A stretch of 8,657 nt of DNA from a virus (lineage: Duplodnaviria; Heunggongvirae; Uroviricota; Caudoviricetes): IMG/VR virus record IMGVR_UViG_2778261299_000009; one strand, 5' to 3'. The notes under the pieces were generated by a model. The model worked only from the letters and a program-made list of their open reading frames with translations. It was not told the origin of the DNA and searched no databases. The translations under genes and the position numbers were made by a program. Positions 1-8,657 of the stretch are shown one piece after another. Every line of letters starts with the position of its first letter. The stretch's first letter is position 1.

Positions 1-26
1 CATATTATCTTTGTATCATTTCTGAT

Positions 27-1875
27 AGTTAACATTACAAGATATAAGTAATGGACGCACTCCCAATTAGTCTATTTAAATCGCCACGAGTTTAACTGAC
101 AACCCATGATCAATTATGAATTGCAACTATTTCTGTAGTCACTTTTGTGGGGACAGTCCACAAAACTGCCAACTTCCGCTTCTTGCTCTTAGCGGACATT
201 AGCATAGGCTATTTACCATAACGCCTCATTACGCGCACCGCCCAGACTGACTCAGCGCGTTTCTGGCATATCCCCGGTAAAACAAGTAACAAACCACCCG
301 AAAATGAACACCAGAAACGCGACTTAAGAATCTACCCTATGAATGGATATGCACTCAACCGAATCGATCTTGGTTTCAATCTTTTTTATCGGGATCAGGC
401 TTCTTTTTAGGTAACTTCGGGGGCTTAACTTGCTGATGACTTTGCGTTCGGCGCGTAAGCCAGGGATGGTCAGCTTTAGGTTTAACATAGTATTTTGAGC
501 GTAAATCAATACGGGCATTATCCACTCGTTCATGGACACTCTTTTCATCATCCAGTGGTATAGGCTCCGGGCCATCAACATACTTTTCCCAGCCCAGCGC
601 TTTCCCGTCATACAGAACGTTAATTTCACCGTCAAAGTTCTCGCATACAGTAACAACCGAATGCCTAAGTCGATATCCCCGGCCCTCACTGCGTACCTGA
701 AACGCACTGCTTTTGTACTGGAAAGTGAGATTTTTAGACAGAACGCGCTTCGCCTGTAGGCTGAAGATATAACCCAGTTCCTCTTCAGAATGGTGCACAT
801 CAAGATGAGCATTATCAGTAGTACGAGGCGACGTAGCGAACCGGTTGTTATAGGCTTCAATAAAGGTCGGCAACCATGCATTTGCTGTTTCAATATCACT
901 GATATTCTGAAGCCGCATTTCTTTGACCAGCCTGTCCTGTAGTGTCTGATTGGCGCGCTCTACCCGCCCTTTTGCCTGCGGGCTGTTGGCATGGATTGGC
1001 TCGATGCCCAGTGTCTTTATCGCACGAGTGAACTGGGTCAGCTCACCTTCCCGCTCTGGGTTATTTACCCTGAATATACTGTGTCTATCAGAGTAGAGAG
1101 CGAGCGGTACGCCATGATCATTAAGGTAACCCCGGAGGGTTTCCATGTAAGCCCGGGTTGTTTCAGCAGGCACAAAACGCAACGCCATCAACGCACTGGT
1201 GGCATCATCAATGAAAACGATCAGTGTACATCTGGGGCCTCGATTTTCAAACCAGTCATGAGGTGAGCCATCAATCTGGATCAGTTCACCGTAAGATGGT
1301 CGTCGCATGCGGCGTTGATATATACGGGCAATTTTACGACGGCGTTCACGCCATAACCCCTCTTCTATCATCCACTTTCTGAGAGTTTCAACGGATAAAG
1401 ATAAACCGTGTATCTCGCGCAATTTTTCGCACGCAAACGTAGGTCCAAAATCAGCGTAACGGCCTTTGAGGAGTGAAATTACTGTTGCTCTGAATTCAGT
1501 AGAAAAGGAATTATTAGGACGCTTTCCACGTCGGTGGGAAACCAGACCAGAAGGCCCTTCATTTCTATACCGTTGCACCAGACGTTTAACCTGCCGAATA
1601 GAAATGCCAATGCGTGCCGCAGCTTGTTCCTGAATAATCTGAAGTCGGTGGAGTTCCTTATGACTCATCGTAACAGTCTCTTTGATCATGAAAAATCCCC
1701 CAGAGAATTGTCTGGGGACATTTTAGAATGGTTCAAAGGGGACATTACAGCTTGGTGTTAACAATAGCCTGCTTCTCCGTGCCTTTCGGCACGTAAGAGG
1801 CTAACCTACATGTGTCTAGCATGAAATTGGCCTCAGATTAATGTTAAGCGTCTTGCAGGACGCGTAATGTTAACT
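27..1875 (-). mobile_element. Putative insertion sequence carrying an rve-type transposase; boundaries are tentative and set by a 12-bp inverted repeat
   Basis: AGTTAACATTAC at 27-38 matches the reverse complement of GTAATGTTAACT at 1864-1875, bracketing the transposase ORF. No target-site duplication is visible, and the repeat does not extend beyond 12 bp. Confidence 0.3.
376..1689 (-). CDS. DDE transposase with N-terminal HTH and integrase (rve) catalytic core, IS481/ISNCY-like
   Basis: 437-aa ORF with ATG at 1689 preceded by a GGGGGA ribosome-binding site. The N-terminus (GISIRQVKRLVQRY) looks like an HTH, the middle region has the look of a retroviral-integrase-type DDE core, and the C-terminus is a basic KPPKLPKKKP tail. 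Family is assigned from memory, not from a search. Confidence 0.85.
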   Translation of the reverse strand: MIKETVTMSHKELHRLQIIQEQAAARIGISIRQVKRLVQRYRNEGPSGLVSHRRGKRPNNSFSTEFRATVISLLKGRYADFGPTFACEKLREIHGLSLSVETLRKWMIEEGLWRERRRKIARIYQRRMRRPSYGELIQIDGSPHDWFENRGPRCTLIVFIDDATSALMALRFVPAETTRAYMETLRGYLNDHGVPLALYSDRHSIFRVNNPEREGELTQFTRAIKTLGIEPIHANSPQAKGRVERANQTLQDRLVKEMRLQNISDIETANAWLPTFIEAYNNRFATSPRTTDNAHLDVHHSEEELGYIFSLQAKRVLSKNLTFQYKSSAFQVRSEGRGYRLRHSVVTVCENFDGEINVLYDGKALGWEKYVDGPEPIPLDDEKSVHERVDNARIDLRSKYYVKPKADHPWLTRRTQSHQQVKPPKLPKKKPDPDKKD

Positions 1876-2023
1876 GGGGCTTTTCTCTATCTGCCGTTGG
1901 TGTCCATGCCCGAGGCAGATAGCCTCAAGCACCCGCAGTCATTCTACTTAACTAAGATTTCCCCGCAAACCGTTTTTGTCCAGCACAGTAAATATCCAAC
2001 TAAACCAATGGAGTTCGCTGTAT

Positions 2024-2203
2024 TTACCGCCAGTATTCAATGCACATGACCGCCATGAACACCCCTAAAAAAAGGGCATTTATATATCCAAATATTAATA
2101 TCAAAACATCAACTTTTTCCATATACCTTGCTGTGAAGATGATGGGCATACATGATGCGAACAACCAGAACGCAACAAACAAAAACTGCAATGCGTTTTT
2201 CAT
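2024..2203 (-). CDS. Small hydrophobic protein (59 aa from the ATG), probably two transmembrane helices; function unknown
   Basis: The track ORF 2024-2242 begins with GTG; an internal ATG at 2203 is preceded by AGGAGG (GTAGGAGGaataATG). The product MKNALQFLFVAFWLFASCMPIIF...LILIFGYINALFLGVFMAVMCI is strongly hydrophobic, and it sits in an AT-rich island. Confidence 0.35.
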   Translation of the reverse strand: MKNALQFLFVAFWLFASCMPIIFTARYMEKVDVLILIFGYINALFLGVFMAVMCIEYWR

Positions 2204-2457
2204 TATTCCTCCTACAATCAATGTGCAATTACATTTAAACACACCTCAATTTGGCCGGACATATAAATATCTAAACCAGAAAAAATCACTTACATAGCGT
2301 TACAAACTCTTTAGTCTAAAGGTTCATCGTAAAACATTCCCCATACTTATCAGTCCGTTCCGCGCCAGGTAGCTCATTGCCTTATCTGGCAACCTGTAAT
2401 CAGGTTTCCGCTTTTTCAGTTGGCTGGTCGTTTAACCGACATAGTTAATCCATTAAT

Positions 2458-2745
2458 CTAGTTGCCGGATGTTGGTGGATTTTCGCGTTTTAGTTGTTCA
2501 TAAAAGTGCACAGCTTTAACCAGTTCTTCTGATGTAACTGGGACTGGTGAGGCAGTGAATAAGGCCTGAATTTGATAGTTCGGCCTGTCGTTACAATCCT
2601 CTTTTTTCGGTACATATTTCCAGTCACCAGACCACTACTTCCCCTGAAAGTCCGTAACGCCTTTTTTCACGTAGCGATATCGCCATGCCACTGGTTTTGC
2701 TTGCCCCGCCGTTTCATGCCCTTCCTGATAATTAATCTCGCTCAT
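2458..2745 (-). pseudogene. Candidate pseudogene: about 95 codons interrupted by one in-frame TAG
   Basis: ATG at 2745 (GGGG-rich ribosome-binding site) gives MSEINYQEGHETAGQAKPVAWRYRYVKKGVTDFQGK, then TAG, then 58 more sense codons in the same frame (WSGDWKYVPKKEDCNDRPNYQIQALF...ENPPTSGN) with no start codon of their own. Confidence 0.3.
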
Positions 2746-2807
2746 TCATCGCCCCACTCATCACAATATGCTTCGACCGGAGTTTTTCCCGCTTCATAGT
2801 CATCACG

Positions 2808-2933
2808 CTAGGATTCGACATCAGCAGCACTTCCACCGCGTAACTCACCATAGTCCATTAATAGTTCATCCCGCTCTTCAAAACTGATGTTATATTTAGC
2901 TGAACAAAAATCAGCCACTTTGTTCTTCCTCAT
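2808..2933 (-). CDS. Small ORF (41 aa), hypothetical
   Basis: ATG at 2933 and TAG stop at 2808-2810. Product MRKNKVADFCSAKYNISFEERDELLMDYGELRGGSAADVES is protein-like, with a weak ribosome-binding site. It shares the N-terminal MRK-x-K with the neighbouring small ORF. Confidence 0.3.
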   Translation of the reverse strand: MRKNKVADFCSAKYNISFEERDELLMDYGELRGGSAADVES

Positions 2934-2982
2934 CGTCTTTTATTTCGTGGTATGAGTAATTGCAGTAGTTAAAGAAAATTTC

Positions 2983-3093
2983 TTATGCTCCGTCATGAAT
3001 TTCCTCAGGTGTTGCGTCATCGTCCACTTCGAATACATCCTCAAAATCTCCACCAGCTATTCCCGTTTCAATAATAATTTTGAACTTTCGCAT
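2983..3093 (-). CDS. Small acidic ORF (36 aa), hypothetical
   Basis: ATG at 3093. Upstream on the minus strand is AGGAGG, then a CCGCCC-GAAA-GGGCGG hairpin, then TAGTGAA and the ATG. Product MRKFKIIIETGIAGGDFEDVFEVDDDATPEEIHDGA. Confidence 0.35.
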   Translation of the reverse strand: MRKFKIIIETGIAGGDFEDVFEVDDDATPEEIHDGA

Positions 3094-3355
3094 TTCACTA
3101 CCGCCCTTTCGGGCGGCCTCCTGATGTTCTGAGGGTGCAGAAATCCATCCGGTTAAGTATTAAATTTTATTTACAGAACTGAATTTAATTATTCAGATAT
3201 ACGTATCTGTAGCCTTACGAATCTACTCACTGGATGCCTCTTTCATAAAAATAATCCAGTGGGTTTTATCGTTTTTTCCCTGTTCGTTGACAGATAACAG
3301 GTTTTCTGTCTGTCAGTGCCAGAATCTGGCTTACCGGTATTTGCGTTTCATTCCA

Positions 3356-3712
3356 TTAAAAAATCAGAACGCCGTGCGGCCTCAACACCCGAAAGGCTTC
3401 TTTAAATCTCTGTCGCGAATCATCACGCCAGGCATCTTTATTCAGCCGTCCATATTTCTTTCCCATCCAGGCGTTATCACCAACACTCTCAAGATGCGGA
3501 GGGTCTAATACAACCATCGAAAAAGATGCGTCTGCAAATGATAATGCACGAAAATCTGCGATAATGTCAGGGCTGATAATCAAGCGTCTCCCATTGCGTA
3601 ATGTGTATCCTTCTTTTCTGATATCGCTGAATATCGCCCGTTCGTCAGACTTATCGAACCAGAACATGCGGCTGCCACAGCACATATCAAGAATGGTTGC
3701 CGGTGCACTCAC
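3356..3712 (-). CDS. Minimal DNA methyltransferase (AdoMet-dependent, N6-adenine/N4-cytosine type), 118 aa, possibly truncated
   Basis: Motif I-like LDMCCGSR near the N-terminus and motif IV DPPH about 60 aa later. GTG start overlaps the upstream stop (GTGA coupling). No target-recognition domain follows; 29 sense codons continue in frame after the TAA stop. Confidence 0.7.
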   Translation of the reverse strand: MSAPATILDMCCGSRMFWFDKSDERAIFSDIRKEGYTLRNGRRLIISPDIIADFRALSFADASFSMVVLDPPHLESVGDNAWMGKKYGRLNKDAWRDDSRQRFKEAFRVLRPHGVLIF

Positions 3713-4131
3713 TGCGCCACGTCCTGAAAATTACCCTGATAGAAAGCCAGTATGCGCTGCATAACTTCGCTCTTCCGGCACTCGCGACAGATTATGTTTA
3801 GGCGACTGTCGTAGCGACGTATTTCTCCGTCAGGTGATGACCAGATAAGGTCCGGATCAACCACAGCAGGTTTCTTCACCTTTGCCCTCGAGAGTTTTTT
3901 GCGGGCGTTTTGCCAGTCCTTACGCGCCTGTTCAGAGGGGAATAACCCGTAGCCGGAGTTGTATACATCGCCACTGGCTACCAGCTCTCTGGCAAGAACG
4001 CTCATCAGATATCTAGTCGCACCTGTTTTAGCTTCCAGTTGCCGTAACGTCTCACGGCCGCTCTGGCGCACGAGTTCCACCACCTGCCATTTAATTTTTT
4101 CCCGCTCTTCTTGTGTAAAAACTTTTGCCAC
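3709..4131 (-). CDS. Hypothetical phage early protein (140 aa), possibly DNA-binding
   Basis: GTG start at 4131 preceded by AAGGGGGA. It lies between the replication initiator and the methyltransferase in the same operon. Basic, with a CRECRK motif; I do not recognise a family. Confidence 0.6.
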   Translation of the reverse strand: MAKVFTQEEREKIKWQVVELVRQSGRETLRQLEAKTGATRYLMSVLARELVASGDVYNSGYGLFPSEQARKDWQNARKKLSRAKVKKPAVVDPDLIWSSPDGEIRRYDSRLNIICRECRKSEVMQRILAFYQGNFQDVAQ

Positions 4132-4171
4132 AAGTCCCCCTTAAAATTACCTCATGACCTGAAATCAACAC

Positions 4172-5137
4172 TTATCCTCTGAAACCAGGCGGAATTTCTG
4201 TATCCGGTTCAGAAATATGATTAACACAACGCTGTACAGGTGAACGTCCCAGGCGGATGACCAGTTCGTCCCATTTTTCGCGGAGCTTTGACGGGCTCAT
4301 GATGTTTTTTACCCAGAATGGATCTCGCTGAACCCGACCAAACATTTCGCAAATTTGTCTGTGGCTTCTGCCATCCAGCATCCGCATTGTGCGCACGTCA
4401 TTGGCCCAGGCAGTCCAGTTAGGCTCTTTTGGTCGCATGATCTCGCCATCATCACTGGCTGCCTGTTCGTAGAGACCCACGATCCGCCCCCAGATCCACT
4501 GCGCACACGCCAAATCCTCCCTGCTACCCCACTGGCGTTTTTTCGCACTAAACACAACCGCGTCGGAGTTCCGGGTTAAAAAATCCTGTTCAGTCGTCTG
4601 CGGGTCCGGTTGCGAAGCTTCCGGACGAAAAGTGTTTTTATTCTCTGTAGTAATCTCTGTTGTATTCTCTGTAAGATCATCAGGCCATTTTGACCCGATG
4701 ACATTGGGTCGTTTTGAACCAATGGAGCGTTTCATTTTGACCTCTTCCATCGTGTCATTTTGACCTGATGGAGCGGCGCATTTTGAACCGATGGATTCGC
4801 TCAATTTGCCACCATCTAAAAGCTCGCTCCCATAGTTGATCGTGTAGAAATTGGTCATATCGCGCTTTGATTTATTGAGCTTTTCACAACGCAAAAGCCC
4901 CAGCGTTTTCAGACTTGCAAACGCGCGCTTTAACGTTGACTCTGACCAGAATGGGAACTGTTCCAGCCATTGTTCCGTTGTGTTATAAATCCAGCGAACA
5001 CCATCACATTCCATGCCGGAGTTGGTATCTCTCAACCAGTAGTGCAGTTGTTGCAAAACAATGGCTTCGTTTAAGCCAATTTTCATTGCCAGCTGCGTGT
5101 TTATAACCAGTGGGCGTTCAGCAAAAAGAAGGCTCAT
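4172..5137 (-). CDS. Phage replication initiator, lambda-O-like (replisome organiser)
   Basis: N-terminus MSLLFAERPLVINTQLAMKIGLNEAIVLQQLHYWL is typical of phage replication-initiator N-terminal domains. The middle of the gene encodes a repeated SIGSK peptide produced by the iteron array. I placed the start at ATG 5137; the track's start at 5191 is a TTG. Confidence 0.8.
   Translation of the reverse strand: MSLLFAERPLVINTQLAMKIGLNEAIVLQQLHYWLRDTNSGMECDGVRWIYNTTEQWLEQFPFWSESTLKRAFASLKTLGLLRCEKLNKSKRDMTNFYTINYGSELLDGGKLSESIGSKCAAPSGQNDTMEEVKMKRSIGSKRPNVIGSKWPDDLTENTTEITTENKNTFRPEASQPDPQTTEQDFLTRNSDAVVFSAKKRQWGSREDLACAQWIWGRIVGLYEQAASDDGEIMRPKEPNWTAWANDVRTMRMLDGRSHRQICEMFGRVQRDPFWVKNIMSPSKLREKWDELVIRLGRSPVQRCVNHISEPDTEIPPGFRG
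4642..4672. repeat. Three direct TCTCTGT repeats at 12-bp spacing next to the iterons
   Basis: TCTCTGT at 4642-4648, 4654-4660 and 4666-4672. Confidence 0.35.
4686..4816. repeat. Iteron array (5-6 direct repeats, about 23-bp period) inside the replication initiator gene; putative phage origin
   Basis: CATTTTGAC/ACC-N-GATGG units starting near 4686, 4710, 4733, 4756 and 4779, plus a degenerate unit near 4803; the spacing is about two helical turns. Confidence 0.6.
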
Positions 5138-5639
5138 AATTCCATCCAGCTTTTTGTTGGTATTGCTGTCGATACGCAAGTTTGAAAGCAATTGCTTTTT
5201 CTATAAGTTCGTCAGTTTCACGATCCACTACGGCAGGATCAGCAAAAAGCAGTCCGGACTCCACCACATCGCCATATTCTTTGTTTAACCCGGCGATCAT
5301 GCACGTGATGCTTTTTCCGTCAGTAATTTCACGATACAACCTGAAATCATTAATCCGGATAGCCTCCATAATTGCAGGCACTAGCGCCGTGAACTTTTCA
5401 CGCTTATCCCTGGTGTCGATAGCCTTCCAGCGTTCAAATATCTTCACTCGATTAACGCCAAGCGCTCGCTGATCAATCGCGCCACCTTCATATGTGACAC
5501 GCTGAACATCGATGTTCGGGCGCTCTTTCAAAGCCCAGAATGCTTCAGTGATTAATATCGTCGCCTGCTCCTGTGTCATTCCTGGTCGACATATCCAGGC
5601 ATCCAGAGCCTCACGAGCCTGTTCAGGAGTGATTTTCAT
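5118..5639 (-). CDS. YdaT-like protein (CII-position early regulator, so-called YdaT toxin family)
   Basis: 173 aa with ATG at 5639, immediately downstream of the Cro-like gene. The segment REKFTALVPAIMEAIRINDFRLY resembles the YdaT segment REKIQKLIPAILAILPRELRHRL as I recall it. Confidence 0.65.
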   Translation of the reverse strand: MKITPEQAREALDAWICRPGMTQEQATILITEAFWALKERPNIDVQRVTYEGGAIDQRALGVNRVKIFERWKAIDTRDKREKFTALVPAIMEAIRINDFRLYREITDGKSITCMIAGLNKEYGDVVESGLLFADPAVVDRETDELIEKAIAFKLAYRQQYQQKAGWNYEPSFC

Positions 5640-5853
5640 TGTTCAACCGCCCCGCCCGCTTCGTCTTACGATATTCATCATAAACTTTGGGATCATACTG
5701 AAGCTCCCCGCCAGATGCCTCCTGTAGACGCATCGCGCGACCTTCGGGAACTAAATCCCCTTTCCAGCTATAAAGCGAAGCCAAACGAATACCTGCTGCT
5801 TGTGCAAGTTTTGTTTTTGAACCGAAATACAAAAGAGCGTCAGTTTTAAGCAT
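5623..5853 (-). CDS. dicC: Cro-like (YdaS-family) DNA-binding regulator DicC
   Basis: 76 aa, ATG at 5853 preceded by AAAGGTG. It is divergent from the CI-like repressor, and the sequence matches my recollection of E. coli Qin DicC. Confidence 0.85.
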   Translation of the reverse strand: MLKTDALLYFGSKTKLAQAAGIRLASLYSWKGDLVPEGRAMRLQEASGGELQYDPKVYDEYRKTKRAGRLNNENHS

Positions 5854-5867
5854 TTAAAACACCTTTA

Positions 5868-5887
5868 TTGTTAGTCATAACTAACAA
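5868..5887. promoter_or_regulatory. Operator: perfect 8-4-8 palindrome TTGTTAGT-CATA-ACTAACAA
   Basis: Read directly from the sequence; it sits in the dicC-dicA intergenic region and overlaps the -10/+1 of the predicted dicC promoter. Confidence 0.5.
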
Positions 5888-5913
5888 GATAGATGTTAAC
5901 AAAAACATAGTCA
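5886..5913 (-). promoter_or_regulatory. Putative sigma70 promoter of dicC
   Basis: On the minus strand, -35 TTGACT (5908-5913), 16-nt spacer, -10 TATCTT (5886-5891). Confidence 0.4.
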
Positions 5914-5936
5914 ATACGATTTAGCATTAGCTAACT

Positions 5937-6344
5937 ATGGAAACAAAAAATTTAACTATCGGCGAACGCATCAGGTATCGTCGGAAAAACCTCAAACACA
6001 CCCAAAGGTCTCTTGCTAAAGCCCTGAAAATCTCCCATGTGTCTGTATCACAATGGGAACGGGGTGATAGTGAACCTACAGGGAAGAACCTTTTTGCCCT
6101 CAGCAAAGTATTGCAATGCTCACCAACATGGATTCTATTTGGCGATGAAGACAAGCAACCAACACCACCTGTTGAGAAGCCAGTTGCCTTATCCCCCAAA
6201 GAACTAGAGCTCCTTGAGCTGTTTAATGCACTGCCAGAATCAGAACAGGATACCCAGCTCGCCGAAATGCGAGCTCGAGTAAAAAACTTCAATAAACTCT
6301 TTGAAGAATTACTAAAAGCCCGTCAGCGGACAAATAAAAGATAA
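5937..6344 (+). CDS. dicA: CI-like HTH (XRE family) repressor DicA
   Basis: 135 aa with an N-terminal HTH (LKHTQRSLAKALKISHVSVSQWERG); divergent partner of dicC; matches my recollection of K-12 DicA. Confidence 0.9.
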   Translation: METKNLTIGERIRYRRKNLKHTQRSLAKALKISHVSVSQWERGDSEPTGKNLFALSKVLQCSPTWILFGDEDKQPTPPVEKPVALSPKELELLELFNALPESEQDTQLAEMRARVKNFNKLFEELLKARQRTNKR

Positions 6345-6405
6345 CATCATCAATGAGTTATCTTTTACCACATCAATTATGTTAGCTATAGCATACAAAA
6401 TCACT

Positions 6406-6434
6406 TGACCGATATGTTAGTCATGGCTAATCTT
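6406..6434 (+). promoter_or_regulatory. Putative dicB-operon promoter with an operator-like site
   Basis: -35 TTGACC (6406-6411), 17-nt spacer, weak -10 TAATCT (6429-6434). TGTTAGTCATGGCTAATC at 6415-6432 matches the intergenic operator at 14 of 18 positions. Confidence 0.35.
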
Positions 6435-6510
6435 GTTTGCATCAACACACCGCACGGTGTTCTCAGCAAACAGTTCCGCTACCCCAGCGTTAAGGGGAAA
6501 TGAGGTCAGC

Positions 6511-6666
6511 ATGGATACTATCGATCTTGGCAACAACGAATCTCTGGTGTACGGCGTGTTTCCAAACCAGGACGGCACGTTCACCGCAATGACGTATACC
6601 AAAAGCAAAACGTTTAAAACCGAAAATGGTGCCCGTCGCTGGCTGGAAAGAAACTCAGGTGAGTGA
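6511..6666 (+). CDS. ydfA: YdfA-like small protein (51 aa, DUF1391-type)
   Basis: ATG at 6511 preceded by TGAGGT; the track ORF 6433-6666 starts at a TTG. Product MDTIDLGNNESLVYGVFPNQDGTFTAMTYTKSKTFKTENGARRWLERNSGE. Confidence 0.8.
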   Translation: MDTIDLGNNESLVYGVFPNQDGTFTAMTYTKSKTFKTENGARRWLERNSGE

Positions 6667-6667
6667 T

Positions 6668-6796
6668 ATGGATTTCGACACAATCATGGAAAAGGCTTAC
6701 GAAGAATACTTCGAAGGCCTTGCCGAAGGCGAAGAAGCTCTCAGCTTCAGTGAGTTTAAACAGGCGCTTTCCAGTTCGGCAAAATCTAACGGCTGA
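6668..6796 (+). CDS. ydfB: YdfB-like small protein (42 aa)
   Basis: Below the track's length threshold. ATG at 6668, preceded by AGGTGAG, lies just after the ydfA stop. Product MDFDTIMEKAYEEYFEGLAEGEEALSFSEFKQALSSSAKSNG. Confidence 0.6.
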   Translation: MDFDTIMEKAYEEYFEGLAEGEEALSFSEFKQALSSSAKSNG

Positions 6797-6825
6797 TAAG
6801 CGAAACAGCACCGCGAGGAATCAGT

Positions 6826-7044
6826 ATGCAGAAACGAGAACCCGTCATCATCGCGCCAGACTATACCGATGATGAACTTTATGAGTGGATGCGCCAGAAA
6901 ATTAATGCAGCGCAGGATCTGAAATGGGCTAATGAAGCCAGGGCTAAGCAGGCTGAAAATCTGTCCGCTCTGGAGCAGGATATCACCAATCTGGAAAAAG
7001 CAGCGGCATTAAGCATTGCCAGAATGATTACATACCCGCGTTAG
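6826..7044 (+). CDS. ydfC: YdfC-like protein (72 aa)
   Basis: ATG at 6826 preceded by GAGGAA; the product has a coiled-coil-like C-terminus. Confidence 0.8.
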   Translation: MQKREPVIIAPDYTDDELYEWMRQKINAAQDLKWANEARAKQAENLSALEQDITNLEKAAALSIARMITYPR

Positions 7045-7384
7045 TAGCTAATCAACAAAGCTAAGGTTAGTAATTAAGGAGTTCTCCACGGGTGAGGTGG
7101 AGTGCGTGCGCCGGACACGGGTGCGCATCCGGAACTGACAGTTTACTGAAAGGATATTTCCCTGAAAAGTCAGACCATAACGCGAAAGCGCACGGCGAGG
7201 TAGCTGGTTCATAGATAGCCTGTCGTTAAATTTTCGTCGACCGTGCGCTTCCGGTTGTGGCAACCCGCGAAATGGCGCGGCGGTAAGTATGGCGGGGTTA
7301 TTCCTTCCCCGTTGAGGACACCGGGTTGTCAGGTTGACCATACGCTTAAGTGACAACCCCGCTGCAACGCCCTCTGTTATCAAT

Positions 7385-7442
7385 TTTCTGGTGACGTTTG
7401 GCGGTATCAGTTTTACTCCGTGACTGCTCTGCCGCCCTTTTT
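7385..7442 (+). ncRNA. dicF: DicF small RNA (ftsZ-targeting sRNA of Qin-type prophages)
   Basis: TTTCTGGTGACGTTTGGCGGTATCAGTTTTACTCCGTGACTGCTCTGCCGCCCTTTTT matches DicF as I recall it, and it lies between ydfC and dicB as in K-12. GGCGG/CCGCC stem plus a T-run at the 3' end. Confidence 0.7.
7399..7442 (+). terminator. Intrinsic terminator-like 3' end of DicF
   Basis: GC stem GGCGG (7400-7404) pairing with CCGCC (7432-7436), followed by TTTTT (7438-7442). Confidence 0.45.
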
Positions 7443-7611
7443 AAAGTGAATTTTGTGATGTGGTGAATGCGGCTGAGCGCACGCGGAACAGTTAAAACCA
7501 AAAACAGTGTTATGGGTGGATTCTCTGTATCCGGCGTTAATTGTTAACTGGTTAACGTCACCTGGAGGCACCAGGCACTGCATCACAAAATTCATTGTTG
7601 AGGACGCGATA

Positions 7612-8657
<1,046 letters not shown>

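Follow-up and report, generated by a model that had tools for sequence, protein, structure and literature searches.

Oc at dicC and two candidate DicA operators at the dicB-operon promoter in the Qin immunity region

The window analysed here is a stretch of 8,657 nucleotides from a Caudoviricetes record (IMG/VR IMGVR_UViG_2778261299_000009). Its positions 5600-7841 are 100 % identical to the dicC-dicA-ydfA-ydfB-ydfC-dicF-dicB segment of the Qin prophage as it occurs in numerous complete genomes of E. coli (K-12 derivatives, C, W and ATCC 8739 among them), and about 240 genomes align with positions 1-7841 nearly end to end. The similarity to Qin stops at 7841, and an istB ORF of the IS21 type lies at 7908-8642. 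The DicF RNA was found at 7386-7437 using Rfam. Compared with Qin of E. coli K-12, the regulatory region shows no difference at all, while the prophage arm is more complete here, with YdaT-like, O-like and DUF977 genes upstream of dicC. The locus shares its genes, promoters and regulatory logic with K-12 Qin, in which DicA represses dicC and dicBp and activates its own gene. It represents the immunity switch of Qin, a cryptic prophage of the lambdoid type, and was described by Béjar, Cam & Bouché 1986, Béjar, Bouché & Bouché 1988, Yun et al. 2012 and Ragunathan et al. 2023. The features of the region are collected in Table 1.

The dicC and dicA genes are divergent, with 83 bp between them. DicC matches the Pfam family P22_Cro (E 1.7e-11) and, in the PDB, P22 Cro (1rzs, E 6.8e-6). 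DicA consists of an N-terminal helix-turn-helix (HTH) domain (Pfam HTH_3, E 1.3e-16) and a non-peptidase C-terminal part, and its residues 7-71 match the N-terminal DNA-binding domain of P22 C2 in the PDB search (E 8e-20, 58%-like similarity). The Pfam search recovered no S24 peptidase domain in DicA, and by its length and the lack of this RecA-cleavable C-terminal domain the protein differs from P22 C2. DicA also has no Ala-Gly site for RecA cleavage; its repression is lifted by the antirepressor Rem instead (Ragunathan et al. 2023, PMC10448788). A self-cleaving repressor of the LexA/lambda-CI kind was considered and rejected on these three grounds, namely no Peptidase_S24 match, a size of only 135 aa and, from the literature, the missing Ala-Gly bond. 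DicA acts like CI at operators and, because it carries no S24 domain, stands outside the self-cleaving CI/LexA class. A hairpin followed by a U-run lies over the dicA stop codon. It folds at -11.8 kcal/mol (z -4.8), and in the SJ2D variant paired changes extend the stem to -16.7 kcal/mol. It is probably an intrinsic terminator that shields dicBp from dicA read-through.

Table 1. Genes, promoter elements and operator-like sites of the region, in window coordinates.
Feature	Positions	Strand	Basis and remarks
dicC, Cro-like regulator, 76 aa	5853-5623	-	ORF; RefSeq annotation 'dicC', 100% identity
dicC promoter (dicCp)	5914-5886	-	promoter scan; -35 TTGACT 5914-5909, 17-bp spacer, -10 TATCTT 5891-5886
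Oc, primary DicA (and DicC) operator, TTGTTAGTCATAACTAACAA	5868-5887		sequence; same 20-mer as in Yun 2012
Middle OR-like site, probable 'Om'	5893-5912		left half ATGTTAAC; 10/20 to Oc, very weak; coordinates assigned here
Third OR-like site, probable 'Oa'	5918-5937		core TTAGCATTAGCTAA (5921-5934), exact TTAG-N6-CTAA; abuts dicA ATG
dicA, short CI-type repressor, 135 aa	5937-6344	+	ORF; annotation
Hairpin + U-run over dicA stop codon	6335-6371	+	inverted repeat, 11/11 complementary
OB2, distal candidate dicBp operator, ATGTTAGCTATAGCATACAA	6379-6398		14/20 to Oc; ends 6 bp upstream of -35
dicBp -35, TTGACC	6405-6410	+	invariant in 10 natural variants; TTGNCN there in most relatives
OB1, proximal candidate dicBp operator, ATGTTAGTCATGGCTAATCT	6414-6433		14/20 to Oc; exact TTAG-N6-CTAA core; over spacer and -10
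dicBp -10, TAATCT	6428-6433	+	17-bp spacer from -35; is the right half-site of OB1
ydfA (DUF1391), first gene of the ydfABC-dicF-dicB operon	6511-6666	+	ORF; Pfam DUF1391, E 1.7e-28; annotation

Every sequence quoted in the first-pass annotation of this DNA was found at the coordinates it gave, including the Oc palindrome, which it had called perfect. Strictly, Oc is 18/20 self-complementary, with 8-bp arms TTGTTAGT and ACTAACAA, an asymmetric CATA centre and the core TTAG-N6-CTAA. The proposed overlap of this palindrome with the -10 and the start of dicCp is borne out both by our promoter scan and by the published mapping of the start. We place +1 of dicCp at about 5879, within the palindrome, since the -11 A fits the mapped start (Yun 2012) together with the scanned hexamers, and Oc then reaches from about -8 to +12. 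The functional evidence for Oc comes largely from Yun 2012 (PMC3441716), where the dicC start was mapped by 5' RACE, the -11 A is in register and Oc overlaps the -10. In the same study the Oc 20-mer cloned alone before a reporter gave DicA-dependent repression in vivo, the single change A16C abolished DicA-dependent repression/binding, and high-copy cloning of the dicA-dicC promoter fragment succeeded only for versions with point mutations in Oc. Reg-Seq also recovers a DicA site at dicC. Moreover, in a ChIP-seq preprint on DicC the known DicA site is occupied by DicC, with the motif TT(A/C/T)G...C(G/A/T)AA.

Two weaker sites lie between Oc and the dicA start codon. The middle one is 25 bp from Oc and equally far from the third, and heteroimmune relatives have degenerate half-sites there too. 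The third has an equivalent directly before the repressor ATG in 14/14 loci compared. An octamer TTAGCTAA at 5927-5934, which had been proposed as an auxiliary half-site, is instead the right part of the core of this third site. The site at 5918-5937 is most likely the published Oa and the one at 5893-5912 probably the published Om; for both, and for the dicBp operators, the literature coordinates are taken here second-hand. Béjar et al. 1988 had proposed the names Om and Oa on sequence grounds only (per Yun 2012, PMC3441716), and neither was bound by DicA in the assay of Yun 2012 (PMC3441716). The DicC ChIP-seq preprint reports DicC binding within the dicC-dicA intergenic region.

Regarding the promoter of the dicB operon, the generic promoter scan did not call dicBp, because its -10 matches the consensus in 3/6 positions, and we positioned it manually, using the -35, the 17-bp spacer and a conserved CATCAA. 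The start is predicted at about 6440-6441, in the CATCAA. The published RNase III position 813/814 (190-nt DicF species), combined with the location of DicF in the window, puts position 1 near 6436. In heteroimmune relatives TAAATT occupies the place of the -10 and is likewise derived from the operator half-site of the locus itself.

The first-pass annotation reported a 14-of-18 match to 5869-5886 at 6415-6432 (TGTTAGTCATGGCTAATC), and our rescan recovered it with the same score. It had been placed between a TTGACC -35 and a weak -10; the TTGACC -35 stands, while the site covers the spacer and also the whole -10 and so does not lie strictly between the hexamers. The full 20-bp site, OB1, overlaps both spacer and -10 because a 17-bp spacer from TTGACC leads to 6428-6433. 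A stretch at 6382-6395 (TTAGCTATAGCATA) had been regarded as another auxiliary half-site and turned out to be the core of a full-length site, OB2, with the same 14/20 similarity to Oc. OB2 has a perfect left and a degenerate right half-site, and it differs from Oc at position 16, where the change from A to C kills Oc. The centres of OB2 and OB1 are 35 bp apart, about 3.3 turns, a spacing with no obvious phasing for side-by-side cooperativity. Because a review mentions 'three operator sequences', we searched for a third clear site at dicBp, and nothing upstream of 6379 or downstream of 6433 rose above background. The sequence TTGTTTGCATCAACA at 6433 was considered and rejected, as a manual count gives 11/20 and, judged by eye, heteroimmune relatives share it only from CATCAA on.

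The 5' leader of ydfA (6440-6510) deserves a separate description, as its conservation extends to loci with different operators and a different downstream gene. At 6474-6499, in its 3' part, it reads GTTCCGCT-A-CCCC-A-GCGTTA-A-GGGG, and the motif stands 3-12 nt before the Shine-Dalgarno sequence. Using a tight pattern scan, we recovered it in more than 120 IMG/VR contigs, before many unrelated small ORFs. The stem arms occur as GCC/GGC, CCCC/GGGG, GTCC/GGAC, CCCTG/CAGGG and GCCT/AGGC, and one stem pair is G-C in 16 distinct sequences, C-G in 15 and unpaired in none. The stem covariation score was 0.216 compared with 0.078 in shuffles and was reached by 0/500 shuffles; this is suggestive and not proof, because related sequences were aligned by manual fitting to the stem. 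The overall fold energy of the leader is unremarkable (z = 0), MAFFT/RNAalifold on 8 leaders gave a weak and partly different structure, and Rfam returned no family for the leader even at E 10. An antiterminator RNA like put of HK022 was rejected, as 6430-6520 shares only 9-10-mers with the PL-nun region of HK022, and for want of putL similarity and of an Rfam family we set aside any put-like or nut-like antiterminator reading. No second copy of the leader was found on the rightward side of the window, and a literature search with the hairpin-motif sequence string returned nothing relevant. 'Boundary sequences' have reportedly been noted in lambdoid phages by Clark et al. 2001. The leader motif may be one of these, or it could be a small translational or processing element.

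We then asked how often such operator-like sites would arise by chance. Scanning both strands of the 8.6-kb window with the 18-mer at 5869-5886 returned as the top three the 18-mer itself, the copy at 6415 (14/18) and a copy at 6380 (13/18), all other matches being at 12 or below. First-order Markov simulations give 0.08 expected matches of at least 14/18 per window, so that taken by itself the 14/18 match is only modestly improbable over the window. Three exact TTAG-N6-CTAA cores are present (at 5871, 5921 and 6417), each within one of the two regulatory regions, with 0.10 expected, and three cores were reached in 0/200 shuffles. A half-site motif search had been suggested for the region and for homologous prophages; here the cores cluster in both regulatory regions and the sites are positionally kept in relatives.

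For comparison among close variants, we drew on genomes and IMG/VR contigs to assemble a same-immunity set with 7 distinct sequences of IG1 and 10 of IG2. In the seven Oc variants substitutions were seen only at 5875, 5876, 5879 and 5880, within the central six bases, and the arms TTGTTAG and CTAACAA were invariant. In OB1 the arms TGTTAG (6415-6420) and GCTAAT (6426-6431) were invariant as well, with changes in the centre (6421, 6422 and 6425) and at the outer edges (6414 and 6432), and the left arm of OB2 was invariant among the same-immunity variants. Invariant arms around a variable centre are the usual signature of an operator of a dimeric HTH protein, whose central bases would be uncontacted.

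A second comparison used heteroimmune loci, whose DicA-like repressors are alike in the C-terminal half and different in the HTH. This set covers 13 immunity types from E. coli, Citrobacter, Enterobacter, Rahnella, Symbiopectobacterium and others. All of these loci display the same order, namely a cro-like gene, about 80 bp, the repressor, a terminator-like hairpin, a site, the -35, a second site and CATCAA. Qin in the window has the cro-side palindrome TTGTTAGTCATAACTAACAA and the leftward -35 sites ATGTTAGCTATAGCATACAA and ATGTTAGTCATGGCTAATCT, the ATCC 25922 type has TTGTTAGACTTTTCTAACAT with TTGTTAGACTAATCTAACAA and ATGTTAGGTTATTCTAAATT, and the mEp460 type has ATTGAGTTTTCTCAAT with CTTGAGTTTTCTCATC and AATGAGAAAACTAAAT. 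In further immunity types the leftward sites likewise change in step with the IG1 palindrome of their own locus. The words shared between IG1 and IG2 are the palindromes at fixed positions around the -35. Across the 13 types the best shared IG1-IG2 16-mer had 13.9 matches within a locus versus 12.3 between loci (permutation p about 5e-5), a test that draws on few independent immunity types, several of them with a common TGTTAG half-site. Row by row, the own-locus score was tied with a cross-locus score in 7/13 types, and two others ranked second and fourth. We consider OB1 a putative operator because its arms are invariant around a variable centre and because the sites covary with the cro-side palindrome. 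More broadly, sequence comparison supports reading both dicBp copies, at 6414-6433 and 6379-6398, as DicA operators.

The same comparison bears on the possibility that the dicBp copies are leftovers or chance resemblances, and that DicA acts through another site or indirectly, via DicC, YjdC or H-NS/Cnu. Several observations point that way. The authors of Reg-Seq graded the DicA site for dicB as low-evidence and gave its location as unknown, the operator-like Om and Oa were not bound by DicA (Yun 2012), H-NS/CnuK9E and YjdC also act on the locus, and the 13/18 and 14/18 matches are individually weak statistics. Against it, in at least 10 heteroimmune relatives the sites hold their places relative to the -35 while their sequence tracks the IG1 palindrome, and among close variants the arms are conserved and the centres variable. 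We therefore regard this explanation as very unlikely.

Another explanation would reserve the dicBp sites mainly for DicC, with DicA needing only Oc and reaching dicBp by long-range contact. The DicC motif from the ChIP-seq preprint fits all the sites, its authors mention DicC sites at promoters transcribing dicB/dicF, and DicC is annotated as 'dicB transcriptional regulator'. These points are not exclusive, because a lambdoid repressor and its Cro use the same operators. Moreover, a dicBp fusion placed outside the locus, with no Oc nearby, was still repressed by DicA, and deletion of dicC left dicBp activity unchanged (Ragunathan et al. 2023), so we give this explanation only a slim chance. 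That the palindrome at 5868-5887 acts as a nucleic-acid hairpin, as a 5' stem of the dicC mRNA or a cruciform, is scarcely credible: it is transcribed from about +1 to +12 of dicC and could pair 8-bp arms around a 4-nt loop, but only about half of it is in the transcript, the equivalent dicBp sites lie upstream of +1, natural variation is central and not compensatory in the arms, and DicA-dependent operator activity before an unrelated promoter and gene (Yun 2012) contradicts it.

The reading of the locus as a DicA switch, in which one repressor acts at Oc and at OB1/OB2 to control both dicC and the dicB operon, is in our view very probably correct. The first-pass annotation had put forward such shared control of dicC and ydfABC-dicF-dicB, and it is supported by the published repression through Oc, by the published repression of dicBp and by our comparative tests. 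Deletion of dicA derepresses dicBp 22-fold, and both intergenic regions have been described as carrying operator sequences like OR and OL of lambda (Ragunathan et al. 2023, PMC10448788).

In terms of known systems, the sites belong to the class of lambdoid OR/OL operators and are closest to those of P22 immC. CI-type and Cro-type genes are divergent, the divergent promoters carry partly symmetric sites that share half-sites, and the operator is repeated at the far-side early promoter, where its position is kept while its sequence follows the specificity of the repressor. P22 immC (C2 structures 1ADR, 2R1J and 3JXB; Cro 1RZS) has the same divergent repressor and cro genes, and the recognition helices of C2 (SHVSVSQWER) and DicA (SNVAISQWER) are nearly identical. 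P22 also has partly symmetric operators, a triplet at the rightward and maintenance promoters and more copies at the leftward promoter, as does Qin. The P22 operator reads TTAAG-N4-CTTAA (2R1J) compared with TTAGT-N4-ACTAA in Qin, and TTA is equally far from the dyad in both. Since the half-site sequences differ, the two are heteroimmune. Unlike P22, with OR1-3 and OL1-3, the window has two clear leftward sites flanking the -35 and not three adjacent ones. The bistable logic is also that of lambda CI/Cro, where the repressor shuts down both early promoters and stimulates its own, and the Cro-type protein shares the sites. The C-terminal domain of the lambda repressor is unrelated, the operator sequence is different, and nothing in the present data points to adjacent-site cooperativity or OL-OR looping in Qin.

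A working model can be drawn from these data and from the literature, according to which DicA binds Oc, represses dicC, represses dicBp and stimulates transcription of dicA. A DicA dimer would recognise partly symmetric sites of about 20 bp with the core TTAG-N6-CTAA. Bound to Oc, it covers the edge of the -10 and the start of dicCp, and dicC is off because RNA polymerase is excluded. The sites at 5893-5912 and 5918-5937, 25 and 50 bp from Oc, would complete an OR-like triplet. DicC probably uses the same sites as DicA in a different order of preference, like Cro, and these two weaker sites are probably the ones it prefers, shutting off dicA. At the other side of dicA, binding of DicA to OB1, which supplies the -10, and to OB2 would occlude dicBp and keep ydfABC-dicF-dicB silent, the sites being predicted from sequence and comparison. 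The 3' end of OB1 is CTAATCT and not CTAACAA, probably a consequence of its second role as a usable -10, which has to end in T.

Two operators around the -35 and an operator-derived -10 are kept in most of the immunity types examined. This leftward-promoter design could represent a distinct repression architecture of short, antirepressor-controlled repressors of the DicA type, a tentative idea that we consider unlikely. Repression might need DicA at both sites, or bridging from them to Oc, 546 bp away on the far side of dicA, in a miniature version of the OL-OR loop, and such bridging, if it occurs, would explain the conservation of the weak-looking OB2.

The finding itself is an ordinary one, because the operators were described decades ago. 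Oc and the idea of operator-like copies at dicBp date back to publications of 1986-1988, and the arrangement is the textbook lambdoid OR/OL layout that Béjar 1988 had put forward. What the present analysis adds is limited to the precise assignment of two candidate 20-bp targets at dicBp, OB1 and OB2, which are identical in K-12, together with the bases in them that the comparison predicts should be mutated. As the dicB operon governs cell division, phage resistance and the output of the sRNA DicF, a defined dicBp operator would be useful for reporters and for studies of bistability.

Between the start of the dicBp transcript, the promoter of the ydfABC-dicF-dicB operon, and ydfA, we found a short leader motif, GTTCCGYT-N-[3-5-bp stem]-GCGNTA(A)-[stem], with the Shine-Dalgarno sequence and ATG of ydfA beginning 3-12 nt downstream. 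The motif is portable: in more than 120 IMG/VR contigs it was found ahead of many unrelated small ORFs of enterobacterial prophages (loci L148-L247, for example L212, L160 and L233). Its stem covaries, with one pair being G-C in 16 cases, C-G in 15 and unpaired in none, and its covariation score was 0.216 vs 0.078 for shuffles, although the alignment was fitted by hand to the stem and the sequences are related, so that these values are suggestive. An H-type pseudoknot is possible, with CGCU pairing to the loop AGCG, but the bases concerned are invariant. No family matching the motif was found in Rfam, and a literature search by sequence returned no match.

The predicted start of the dicBp transcript, immediately before this motif, is kept in heteroimmune E. 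coli prophages, which have the same layout and another HTH. In four Citrobacter/Enterobacter loci (L007, L008, L010 and L022) the element is still recognisable, with changed hairpin arms and retained pairing. Because of its position a put- or nut-like element was considered, but similarity to HK022 putL is absent and the fold energy is unremarkable, and this reading was rejected.

At the other end of the promoter region, an inverted repeat overlapping the end of dicA is probably the dicA terminator. Its predicted fold reaches -11.8 kcal/mol (z -4.8), and in strain SJ2D (L001) paired substitutions lengthen the stem, to -16.7 kcal/mol. This repeat contains too few G-C pairs for the generic terminator scan to have called it.

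Features of the switch region and the prophage arm in the window
Feature	Position	Strand	Remarks
Transposase ORF, 437 aa	376-1689	-	HTH and rve_3 domains; ISNCY family by annotation of matching genomes
sok antitoxin RNA, full-length	1763-1934	-	Rfam, 104 bits
Probable dicA terminator	6335-6371		AT-rich 11-bp inverted repeat, then TTTT; overlaps dicA stop codon
dicBp transcript start	6440-6473		CATCAA, hairpin AACACC-GCAC-GGTGTT (6446-6461), CTCAG
Leader motif	6474-6499		upstream of ydfA
IstB ATPase ORF	7908-8642	-	IS21-type

The full-length sok RNA indicates a hok/sok-type toxin-antitoxin module upstream in the same prophage arm. The transposase and IstB ORFs both belong to insertion sequences. 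Identity to the reference E. coli genomes stops at 7841, just past dicB, and thus the source of the window apparently has at that position an insertion of IS21 type that is missing from the best-matching genomes.

Three of the compared genome contigs that carry this E. coli-type prophage switch (L006, L016 and L017) are assigned to MAGs labelled Collinsella sp., Bacillota bacterium and Veillonella parvula. Their repressors match those of E. coli loci, one being 99% identical to DicA, and they are most likely mis-binned Enterobacteriaceae prophage contigs.

Compared by eye across types, the recognition-helix motif (DicA residues 33-42) tracks the operator half-site: ...SQWE occurs with TTAG, ...SLWE with TGAG and ...FKWE with TAAC-type half-sites. 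The plain TTGAG/CTCAA is present only in L003 and L019, and L008 and L022 have TGTTGAG mixed with TTAAC/TAAAC half-sites. Residue 39 (Q or L) of DicA and its relatives is aligned with Gln37 of P22 C2. The P22 operator consensus is TTAAG-ATAT-CTTAA (2R1J), and the third OR-like site of four heteroimmune relatives (L003, L008, L019 and L022), directly 5′ of the repressor ATG, is very close to it (ATTAAGATATCTAAA). In the same loci the first operator, by the cro-like gene, has another half-site, TTGAG/CTCAA or TGTTGAG. The P22-like third site together with this different first operator hints that repressor-preferred and cro-preferred sites differ in specificity.
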